Assembly (NCBI GenBank): GCA_964619725.1
Contig: CAZUFC010000034.1
Span: 1 to 64,000, forward strand
Direction: 5' to 3'
Length of the DNA: 64,000 bases
Source of the DNA: an uncultured bacterium
Lineage (GTDB): Bacteria > CSSED10-310 > CAZUFC01
Position 1 is the first letter of the stretch. Each line of letters begins with the position of its first letter. The position numbers and the translations under genes are program-made. The notes beneath the pieces were generated by a model. The model was not told the origin of the DNA and ran no database searches. It saw nothing but the letters and a program-made list of their open reading frames with translations. Shown one piece after another: positions 34,701 to 37,969 of the stretch.

Positions 34701-37700
34701 ATGTCGTTCTGCCGTTGACGTTTGCCTGCGAAGCGCCCAGGAGCATCTTCCAGGCGACTGTACCGGGTTCGGAATACTGCTACAGCATGGCCAACTGGTT
34801 CTGTACGAACAGACCGAACATAAGCATGAGGTTCCATACCTCTGCAGCGCTTGAAGATATAGAAAGCGCCGTGATCTACACCACATTCGATCCCAGACCG
34901 AACGTGCGGCCGCACTTCATAGACCTGTTCATCAACGGACATTTGATCGGCGAATTGAACGATCTGATACCCGACGGCACATACGGCTTCGCATTCGATC
35001 CAGCCTTACTGCACTTCAATCCGAACGGCTCTGCCTCCAATAGCTTCGCTATAAGAACGCAACACTTCAACGGAGGGCATTACGCCATTACCTCTAATTC
35101 CCTGGTATTCCTGACGCTGAAACCAACGACGGCTTACGTCTGCGCCGAAGATCAGGCCCAGGCCGATGCCATTGCCCAGACATTCCCCCATTACTGCGAT
35201 GAAATTACCTTCGATCTTGATCCGAGAGTCCTGACGGTCCAGACCAGGAACGAAATGGGACAGGTCGCTCATACTTTCTATCCGGGCGATACGGTTGAAA
35301 TCAGTTTAAGAGCGCAGAATCCGCATCCCATGTACAACTACGATACGACCTTCACCCTGAAGATCGATACCGACGGAGACACGGGAACCGTTGAATGGAA
35401 CAGCCATGACGAAGGCGAAGATTGGGTCGTGTTGCTTGATCATAATGCTGATGAGCTGCATTCCTGGTTCTGGACGGTACCGTCAGGTTCGCCCAATATT
35501 CAGTTTACCATTGAAGCGCATGACACCAACGATTATGAAGGGACCCTCTACGACGAACCGGGTTGGAACTGGAATTTCCATGTCGGCGGCGGCATTACGG
35601 GATTCGTGAGAGACGATGATACCATGCAGCCTGTTGAAGGCGCATCCGTCACAGCGAGCGGCGGCTACAACGATGCGGATGGAACGGATGAAAACGGTTT
35701 CTACGAAATCCAGCGCATACCGAACGGAACTTACAATGTGACGGCAGGAGCTGTCGGTTATGTGCCGGGAACCCTGACTGACGTTGAAGTATCAAGCGAC
35801 GTGCTGGTGAACCAGGATATCTACCTGTTGATACCTACAGCCACCATGACGCCGACCGTAAGTCCCACGCCGACGGTTACGCTGACGCCTACGACGAGTC
35901 CCACCCCGACGGTCACAGCTTCGCCTTCGCCTACCTTCACCAATACGCCGATAGGAACGTTAACGCCGACGGAAACCCCGACATTGACGCCCACGCCGGA
36001 ACCGACAGGCACGCCTACTGTACCGCCCATGGTCGTATGGGTGGACGACGACTGGACCGGCAGCAAACCCGGAGATATCGTCGACGGACACGTCTTCGGA
36101 TACGATGCTTTCGCGACAGTCAACGACGCGCTCGCCGCCATCGATGCCGGCGGCGTCATTAACGTGCATTCCGGTTCCTACAATGAAACCGTCCTCTTCG
36201 GCCCTGCATTCCAGAAAAACGGCATTCAGCTCACAGGCGAAACCGGAAATCTACCCGTCATTGACGGCGGCGTTAAATTCCAGAATTACAGCGACCTGGA
36301 CGGCATTACCATTGAAAACCTCTACCTGCAGGGATACGCCGGATACCAGAGAATCGTGCAGATGACCAATTCCGGCGCCATCGAAAACTTCACCATGAAC
36401 AATTGCGTGCTTGACGGACAAAATGTTTCCAACCGTGACGGATTCTACGGCAATAAACTCACAGGAACATTGACGATAACCGATTGCGAATTCAAGAACA
36501 TTCTGGGAAGCTACGTCATGGATACCGATCCTGCGGCCCCAGGTCCCGAAGGAAACAACGAATACGCGTTCACGACTGTTGACTTCACAGGAAACAACAT
36601 CCACGACTGCAACGGCGGTACGGCGCTCAGAGGCAACAACGGCGATCCGACGGATGAGGTTAACGTCTACAATAACCTGTGGTCCAACATCGGCGGCGTT
36701 CAGGGAGAAACAGGCAAGTTCCATTCCGCCCTGGAAATAAACCATGCTTCTGAGGCAAACATCTACGACAATACCCTTTCCGACGTTTCCCTGGGACAGG
36801 GCGGCGAAGGACAGGCCGTCAGACTCTGGGATATTGAAGGACTGGGCATGTATTGCAACGATATACTCAGTAATGCCCAGGGCATATTCATCTTCGGAGG
36901 CGGAGGCATTTACGGAGGACCCTTCAATGTGCCCGGCGGATTCATCCAGTACAACAACATCGCCGGTAATTCAGACTACGGCCTTACGGTCGACGGCGAT
37001 GCCCTCGGCGGTCCCGTTAAAGCCGATTACAACTACTGGGGAGCCCCCGACGGTCCTTCCGGATGGGGCACAGGCGCCGGCGACGAAGTCTGGGGAGCCG
37101 TCACTTACGATCCGTGGCTCAGCTACGAACAGGGCGATCCCTGTCCTCCCGATTGCAGAAACGACGGCGACGTCGACAACAACGGAAGACTCTCACCCGG
37201 CGACGGACTGCTCTCCTTCCAGATTTACATGGAAACCATCCCCTATCCCACACTCGAAGAACAATGCTCCGCAGACTGCAACGGCAACTTCATGGTCACC
37301 CCGGAAGACGCTCAGTGCATTTTCTGGTCATACCTGGGTCTGGGCTGCGATTGCGTCGATCCCATTGCTAAATCAGGACCCGCTGCAGGCAAAAAACTCA
37401 AACCCATAACCGATCCCAGAACCGGAACCATCTCCATAGGACCCAAAAACATCTACGGATGCAACAGCGAAACCATCAAAATACCCATAGCAGTCAGCGG
37501 AATGTCATCCGCCGTCAACGCATTCGCCCTCGAATTCGAATTCGATCCCGATATGCTCAGATTCGTCTCCGCAGACAAAGGCGATACGATCAGCGACTTC
37601 GATTACTTCGGAGCCAATGAATTACAATCAGGAACGCTGAGAATCGGCGGATTCGATCCCGACACTAGCTCAGTCTCCAGCAGCAACGGCATACTCACCG

Positions 37701-37969
37701 TCCTCACATTCAAAGTCGAATGCGAATCATGTATAAACGGCGACAGCTCCATACTGAAACTGGAAAACCTCGATGACGACATCGCCGGCATCAACATTCA
37801 GAACGGTAACTTCATCTACGACTGCGAAGGCTTCTTCCCCACTCCCATTCCCACTCCCATGTTCAATCGCATTCCTGTCCTCGGCGGAACTGGCATCATG
37901 CTTCTGATTCTCCTCTTCGGCGCCTTCTTCATTACATCGAACGCCGTCATGAAAAAGAAAATTAAATAA
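1745..37969 (+). CDS. Giant (~12,070 aa) modular secreted surface protein, putative adhesin or scaffold, with C-terminal IP-anchor
   Basis: Single open frame in the ORF track (GTG 1739; ATG 1745 is better spaced from the RBS). Signal peptide; DUF2341+LamG; DNCP/DxDxDG TSP3-type repeats; second LamG; 7 propeller-like modules; 2 FG-GAP+Fn3 blocks; 6 CARDB/Ig/CarboxypepD_reg-like supermodules; beta-helix; dockerin-like and cohesin-like domains; tail [32 protein letters not shown]. Confidence 0.95.
4208..13920 (+). repeat. Seven tandem ~460-aa modules (probable beta-propellers) in the giant protein, separated by P/T linkers
   Basis: Module starts (Trp of WSxxxxxxLxV) at 4208, 5582, 6953, 8339, 9722, 11102, 12587. 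Internal ~60-aa repeats of type DGxGG...W.D.R....Y.QR...G..W...G. Confidence 0.9.
14070..18470 (+). repeat. Two tandem FG-GAP/VCBS propeller + Fn3-like blocks in the giant protein
   Basis: Repeated DW(N/D)xDGKxDLL Ca-binding loops. Both blocks start AGGPPEF/AAGPPEF and end with TSPAE...[10 protein letters not shown]...TYYYR.F..D.VLP.YS. Confidence 0.88.
18521..36025 (+). repeat. Six tandem ~975-aa supermodules (CARDB + Ig/Fn3-like + WFCTNRP domain + CarboxypepD_reg-like + P/T stalk)
   Basis: Starts at 18521, 21452, 24368, 27305, 30224, 33140 (period ~2.92 kb). Each has (A)PDL...QDI.F, E.NE.NN-type CARDB end, [15 protein letters not shown], HxNGGHY, [14 protein letters not shown], GGGITG.V.D and PNGxY.VTAG. 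Confidence 0.92.
37154..37828 (+). other. Dockerin-like duplicated Ca-binding segment followed by a cohesin-like domain
   Basis: [19 protein letters not shown]...[18 protein letters not shown] gives two F-hand-like loop-helix units. It is followed by TIKIPIAV...[18 protein letters not shown]...[10 protein letters not shown], a cohesin-like strand pattern. Confidence 0.72.

Follow-up and report, generated by a model that had tools for sequence, protein, structure and literature searches.

The C-terminus of a giant surface protein, encoded in a 64,000-nucleotide stretch of DNA from an uncultured bacterium (contig CAZUFC010000034.1, assembly GCA_964619725.1; hereafter the window), carries a dockerin and a cohesin side by side and ends, after a Pro/Thr linker, in a tail that is hydrophobic and basic. 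We propose, with a probability of about one half, that this cassette is a self-complementary docking unit, predicted to be calcium-dependent, on the end of surface proteins nearest the cell. The tandem belongs to a large non-cellulosomal protein family, from uncultured bacteria, that normally combines the two modules in a single chain.

The cassette ends the giant protein and runs, in order, beta-helix, dockerin, 21-residue linker, cohesin, Pro/Thr linker and sorting tail (Table 1), the dockerin and the cohesin falling within the last 270 residues. An earlier sequence-only reading had recognised a tandem of dockerin-like and cohesin-like domains at 37154–37969. Its limits are exact, since 37154 falls on the second cysteine of a CPPDC motif (residue 11806) and the stop codon of the giant open reading frame (ORF) finishes at 37969, and the PTPIPTP segment that it placed after the cohesin is present. 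Both domain identities are supported by sequence homology as well as by the predicted folds; the folds obtained are those of a dockerin and a cohesin, so that the reading is not refuted on this side.

The second module is a genuine type-I-like beta-sandwich cohesin. Pfam called it as PF00963 with 39.4 bits against a cutoff of 24.1 (E = 8.9e-10, profile positions 14–103 of 139), and NCBIfam gave no match on the C-terminal segment. All five matches retrieved from the PDB by phmmer at E<=10 were cohesins, and a profile made of the window cohesin and six small relatives gave 15 matches at E<=0.01 (best 6kg8_A, E = 9.4e-10), 12 of them cohesins and three dockerins, the latter because the rows of the relatives include dockerin columns. 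An AlphaFold2 (AF2) model of the last 281 residues reached a predicted local distance difference test score (pLDDT) of 95–98 over the cohesin. Every top match listed by Foldseek for this domain was a cohesin (best 6kgf_A, E = 5.4e-12), those of OlpA, OlpC and ScaE being among the matches, with target-normalised TM-scores of 0.75–0.80 against type I cohesins and 0.73 against the non-cellulosomal cohesin 2xdh of Archaeoglobus fulgidus. One relative, P0009, has five cohesins, and each of them is 29–35% identical to that of the window.

The module ahead of it is a divergent calcium-loop, three-helix dockerin. It holds seven cysteines (CPPDC and five more) and two EF-hand-type loops of 12 residues, spaced 35 residues apart and each followed by an amphipathic helix. 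The duplicated DxxxxGxxxxxD segment described previously is exact in loop 1, but loop 2 has F in place of G. The loose loop pattern occurs three times in the 12,076 residues of the protein, and a pair of loops 25–45 residues apart was found in 0.1% of 2,000 residue shuffles. Both in a 26-row and in a 35-row alignment, D12 of loop 1 and Cys2 and D12 of loop 2 are invariant.

Homology searches point to a dockerin through the relatives of this segment. Its sole Pfam match was EF-hand_1 (E = 0.26), and Dockerin_1 matches 15 of 26 and 10 of 17 aligned relatives, with which the window dockerin aligns cleanly. On its own, the sequence retrieved from the PDB only a double-dockerin 'serine protease' (E = 0.03); a 20-row family profile retrieved 19 matches at E<=1, comprising 13 dockerin chains, four C-terminal ends of cellulosomal or amylosomal enzymes and two unrelated proteins (LGR4). 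The AF2 model of the dockerin alone had a pLDDT of 92.0 and a predicted TM-score (pTM) of 0.80, with helices at residues 25–35, 44–50 and 60–71. The first 26 matches listed by Foldseek for this model were all dockerins, with target-normalised TM-scores of 0.58–0.85 and root-mean-square deviations (rmsd) of 1.4–3.8 Å, among them 2ccl_B (0.85, 1.4 Å) and 1ohz_B (0.84, 1.5 Å). Over 67 near-full-length dockerins of the family, three pairs of cysteines tend to occur together (both/first only/second only/neither: 28/4/0/35, 49/0/4/14 and 47/12/3/5), which suggests three disulfide staples in the dockerin. Chance resemblance of the modules to dockerin and cohesin was considered and rejected.

A search with the 271-residue C-terminal tail against 1.84 billion cluster representatives gave 1,464 matches at E<=0.001, 452 at E<=1e-10 and 46 at E<=1e-30, while word-based homologue searches returned few relatives (six and two matches). 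We classified the best 150 relatives with hidden Markov models (HMMs) built from the aligned dockerin and cohesin modules. Both modules lie on one chain in 114 of them, 35 carry cohesin only (two to six copies in all but two) and one carries dockerin only. The expectation that each half of such a pair usually sits on a different protein therefore does not apply to this family, nor to the adaptors described in passages of PMC4081043. The commonest architectures were cohesin-dockerin-cohesin (39), dockerin-cohesin (28), three cohesins (16) and cohesin-cohesin-dockerin (13). Where a cohesin comes after a dockerin, the gap between them has a median of 22 residues over 91 pairs; where a dockerin comes after a cohesin, the two modules abut directly.

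P0018, P0021 and P0024 have C-termini with 45–54% identity to the whole cassette (beta-helix, dockerin, cohesin and tail) and unrelated N-terminal parts. No beta-helix Pfam domain was called in the window copy. Judging from a motif at the extreme C-terminus, a type IX secretion-like tail ends 28 of the 150 relatives. At least 350 residues lie outside the modules in 88 relatives, and the shortest 54 of these were scanned with Pfam (34 were left unscanned). Their cargo consists of beta-helix, InhA-like MAM, Kelch, FG-GAP, Laminin_G_3, peptidase S8, Calx-beta and similar domains; a C-terminal FlgD_ig was found in 14 of the 54, and a glycoside hydrolase catalytic family at E<=1e-6 in none. Names assigned automatically to some clusters, 'Cohesin/Dockerin type I domain-containing protein' for one, indicate that proteins of this kind are already in the databases. 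A conserved, unannotated end domain of about 200 residues (...EPF.WP...FGY/FGW) was seen in P0006, P0011, P0013, P0017, P0019, P0023, P0027 and P0047; it terminates many multi-cohesin relatives in place of a membrane tail or secretion domain.

The proposal that the two modules pair comes from the tandem model, which had a pTM of 0.78 over 281 residues. About 208 of these are confident (73 in the dockerin and 135 in the cohesin), and the cohesin alone could give a pTM of about 0.5. Because 0.78 is above what free domains allow, the geometry between dockerin and cohesin is fixed in the model, and we infer that the dockerin is modelled as docked onto its own cohesin. The value would imply that the modules pair, without distinguishing pairing in cis from pairing in trans. 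Under the proposed mechanism, the dockerin and the neighbouring cohesin would be complementary and would pair via a defined interface. More speculatively, the flexible linker of 21 residues may permit closure in cis, giving a capped resting state, and the same interface could swap in trans with a neighbour or with an anchored multi-cohesin relative, linking the proteins side by side. The cargo held in this way would be adhesin-like repeats, not cellulases. Cohesin-only proteins and proteins ending in a dockerin both exist in the family, so that trans docking is expected somewhere within it, and multi-cohesin relatives such as P0009 bear the same tail as the giant protein.

Several observations weigh against this self-complementary docking unit. 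The pTM is the single source of the docked geometry, and the interface may not be the canonical face of the cohesin. Cohesin-dockerin complexes are familiar to AlphaFold, and the docked pose may mirror a similarity to pairs of solved structure. The cohesins of classical scaffoldins, as a rule, deliberately do not bind the dockerin of their own chain. Regarding the dockerin itself, Dockerin_1 (PF00404) had no match at E<=10 to segments of either 73 or 92 residues; the best matches of the family profile, 4fl4_A (E = 0.0041) and 2ccl_B (E = 0.0051), have both loops in register at marginal E-values; and no Foldseek match of the model reached E<=0.001 (best 0.023), E-values being weak because the dockerin is short (about 60 aligned residues). 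The 64 kb window, scanned in six frames, held neither a further dockerin nor a further cohesin. Finally, in a tree of 298 cohesins, left from 335 modules after removal of 37 with too many gaps, the window cohesin fell in no supported clade, including no 'post-dockerin' clade. Context labels do cluster in this tree (55 changes against 158.5 when shuffled), which gives no inference because related sequences share labels.

A possible but doubtful alternative is a hetero-specific adaptor, in which the two modules would not pair. Its dockerin would attach the giant protein to an anchored scaffoldin with several cohesins, the product of a gene elsewhere, and its cohesin would recruit a different dockerin-tagged protein. 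The tandem model, whose pTM implies a fixed pair, and the narrow spacing from dockerin to cohesin argue against it, as does the lack of a partner gene within the window, yet suitable components do exist among the relatives: nine anchored proteins combine three to five cohesins with the same tail (P0007, P0009, P0010, P0014, P0016, P0028, P0062, P0070 and P0125), and free terminal dockerins occur in the best 150 after one (CD, 8), two (CCD, 13) or three cohesins (CCCD, 2). Adaptors with cohesin and dockerin on one chain are, moreover, known in R. flavefaciens from passages of PMC4081043.

It is very improbable that the modules are a structural spacer, kept at the stalk base for their stable folds and no longer binding any partner. 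Although Pfam does not call the dockerin, the usual glycine of loop 2 is replaced by F and the extra disulfides suggest selection for stability, the calcium-ligand positions 1, 3, 5 and 12 are intact in both loops, D12 is invariant across 35 rows, and the family is large, with co-occurring modules.

We give almost no credence to a true cellulosome component organising polysaccharide-degrading enzymes: the nearest solved structures are cellulosomal cohesins and dockerins, the giant protein has a sub-threshold GH43 match (28.4 bits against a cutoff of 32.2) and the scanned relatives include single CBM9_1 and 3keto-disac_hyd matches, but the window holds no glycoside hydrolase above the Pfam cutoff, as the sequence-only reading had stated, none of the 54 scanned relatives has a catalytic family of this kind, and the FadL/TodX-type outer-membrane protein gene in the window (50915–52237) shows that the host is a diderm bacterium. 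The classical cellulosome was rejected, dockerin-tagged glycoside hydrolases being absent from the window at the Pfam cutoff and from the 54 relatives scanned.

The tail that closes the cassette follows a recurrent pattern: [IV]P[AV], a few residues, a glycine, about 16–20 hydrophobic residues and a K/R cluster, usually preceded by a Pro/Thr-rich linker. It ends five of the 126 window frames of at least 100 residues (Table 1), and the IPA-G/helix/basic form as in the giant protein ends 15 of the 150 relatives. In the 281-residue model, the AF2 helix at residues 255–278 corresponds to the tail helix. The PEP-CTERM/exosortase and LPXTG signals likewise consist of a short motif, a hydrophobic helix and a basic cluster behind a Pro/Thr-rich spacer, and are likewise common to several secreted proteins of one genome. 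Unlike these, the window tail lacks an HMM match (the NCBIfam CTERM models gave none at E<=10 to three tails), and no sortase-like family was recognised among the window proteins; Atlas feature look-alike scores were weak (LPXTG 0.78, PEP-CTERM 0.76) and are leads only. The tail is probably a dedicated sorting signal, and may represent an uncatalogued exosortase-like one. Of the membrane anchor described by the sequence-only reading, the hydrophobic and basic tail thus stands; since it looks like a sorting signal shared by several proteins, 'anchored base' may overstate its role.

Carried further, the self-complementary docking unit could swap between neighbours and so chain giant proteins into a calcium-dependent surface lattice or canopy, with multi-cohesin relatives as hubs and delivery by an uncatalogued sorting signal of the IPA/IPV type. 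We consider this extension unlikely. If true, it would mean that a cellulosome-style principle of assembly has been reused for an envelope layer in uncultured diderm bacteria.

The cassette can be compared with several known systems. Anchoring scaffoldins such as OlpA, OlpC and ScaE also have a cohesin directly ahead of a cell-attachment element, attachment being via SLH modules or LPXTG sortase signals. Unlike the giant protein, they have no dockerin, and the window tail is instead an IPV-G motif, a helix and a basic cluster with no NCBIfam match. In ScaC-type adaptors, the two modules have different partners. These adaptors resemble the giant protein in having one cohesin and one dockerin on a single polypeptide, but they are small, lack a membrane tail and belong to a Gram-positive cellulase system, whereas here the dockerin precedes the cohesin in a protein of 12,076 residues, with extra cysteines and with the modules modelled as a self-pair. 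Passages of PMC4081043 describe such monovalent adaptor scaffoldins, with cohesin and dockerin on one chain, as linking components of ruminococcal cellulosomes.

Nearer in kind are non-cellulosomal systems of archaea and uncultured bacteria, which also have cohesin and dockerin on surface proteins or adhesins with no link to cellulose. Excerpts of the corresponding papers report proteins of anaerobic methanotrophic (ANME) archaea that combine a single dockerin with as many as five cohesins (PMC9012536), an adhesin with 'adjacent cohesin/dockerin domains' in the syntrophic sulfate reducers that are ANME partners (PMC10553843), and a scaffoldin with a C-terminal secretion domain in Cloacimonadota (PMC8542988). 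Omnitrophota 'Dockerin-type' giant proteins, as far as portions of 10.1101/2023.11.21.568195 describe them, have at least 30,000 residues, many dockerin and TSP3 repeats and SecA-like C-termini, unlike the window protein with its 12,076 residues, one dockerin, one cohesin and one TSP_3 match. The tandem is a variant of this already known non-cellulosomal cohesin-dockerin theme. The portions of the literature covered contained no Cys-stapled bacterial dockerin, no beta-helix-dockerin-cohesin-tail cassette and no self-paired tandem; supplementary tables outside the search (PMC9012536 S4 Data, PMC10553843 S10 Table) may list similar tandems.

Table 1. Coordinates of the C-terminal cassette, the giant ORF and the ORFs sharing its tail (window positions).
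Feature	Positions	Strand	Basis or remark
Beta-helix-like part, aa 11431-11801	36029..37141	+	Preceded by a Pro/Thr linker; relatives carry PF13229, PF05048
Divergent Cys-rich dockerin, aa 11802-11874	37142..37360	+	Family profile against PDB, AF2, Foldseek
Calcium loop 1, 12 residues	37169..37204	+	D/N at 1, 3, 5 and 12; G at 6
Calcium loop 2, 12 residues	37274..37309	+	D/N at 1, 3, 5 and 12; F replaces G at 6
Dockerin-cohesin linker, 21 residues	37361..37423	+	pLDDT 62-66; variable in length and poorly conserved in close relatives
Cohesin, aa 11896-12029	37424..37825	+	PF00963; carries the four-Cys pattern of the family
PTPIPTP linker	37838..37858	+	Read from the sequence
Tripartite tail: IPVLGGTG, hydrophobic helix, KKKIK	37868..37966	+	Common to five window proteins; hydrophobic stretch at 37892-37933, KKKIK at 37952-37966
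Giant ORF, 12,076 aa	1739..37969	+	ORF listing; super-repeats and unique C-terminal cassette
N-terminal hydrophobic segment, aa 1-36	1739..1846	+	Kyte-Doolittle scan; likely signal peptide or signal anchor
Tail-bearing ORFs	1739-37969; 27-1256; 38954-40525; 42812-47329; 52556-55975	+; +; -; +; +	Shared tail; the first is the giant ORF

Upstream of the cassette, the giant protein is repetitive. Self-comparison revealed super-repeat units of about 460 residues over residues 800–4000, of about 740 residues over 4080–5550 and of about 975 residues over 5600–11400 (55–76% identity for the last), leaving only the last 650 or so residues, from residue 11431 (nucleotide 36029), as unique. The Pro/Thr linkers between units are near-identical, and the repeats make up nearly all of the window from 1739 to 36028. 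Pfam families recognised in the protein were Laminin_G_3, DUF2341, TSP_3, FG-GAP_3, CARDB, CarboxypepD_reg, Wzt_C-like and Cohesin. By the Kyte-Doolittle scan, strongly hydrophobic regions are two, residues 1–36 and the last 30 or so, and a weaker stretch of 19 residues (10932–10950) lies barely at the threshold; this profile is compatible with secretion and a C-terminal hydrophobic tail.

Across the dockerin-cohesin region, minus-strand ORFs are all short (41–64 residues). Two plus-strand ORFs lie in an alternative frame inside the giant ORF (36744–37409 and 37063–37371), and nothing suggests that either is a gene. A scan for terminators and promoters 3' of the giant ORF gave nothing exceeding shuffles, and the window had no tRNA or Rfam matches. 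In genome contigs, a scan with a four-row alignment, covering beta-helix patterns only, returned one weak beta-helix locus in Saprospiraceae (L001).

Among the neighbouring genes, the upstream ORF at 27–1256 (+) has the common tail and encodes DUF2341 and Laminin_G_3, two domains with which the giant protein also begins. The ORF at 42812–47329 (+) encodes 1,505 residues with no Pfam family, consisting of a Cys-rich N-terminal part of about 840 residues and about 650 residues of TPT/SPT repeats ahead of the common tail. The G+C content is 0.50–0.57 in the large surface-protein genes against 0.45–0.47 in the flanking housekeeping genes, and GC skew is strongly negative over the Pro/Thr-repeat region at 46001–48000. 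At 56167–58792 (-), a GlcD-like FAD oxidase is paired with a CCG/4Fe-4S subunit; the nearest named relatives of the oxidase (64–72% identity) are spread over WOR-3, Thermoplasmata, Cloacimonetes and Woesearchaeota, and the gene is therefore without taxonomic signal.

Among strong protein connectors, cohesin-dockerin pairs have been studied best, commonly as organisers of cellulases. The present case points to a large cellulase-free family, in which plug and socket are normally fused, probably stapled by cysteines, and adjoin the cell-attachment signal of adhesin-like or protease-like surface proteins. Standard Pfam screening misses such dockerins, and censuses of these systems therefore undercount them. 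If the tandem is self-complementary, it would give protein engineers new connector pairs that are orthogonal and stabilised by disulfides and, for the cell, would offer a simple rule for tying very large surface proteins together or keeping them capped. We regard it as a moderately interesting lead on how very large surface proteins are joined.

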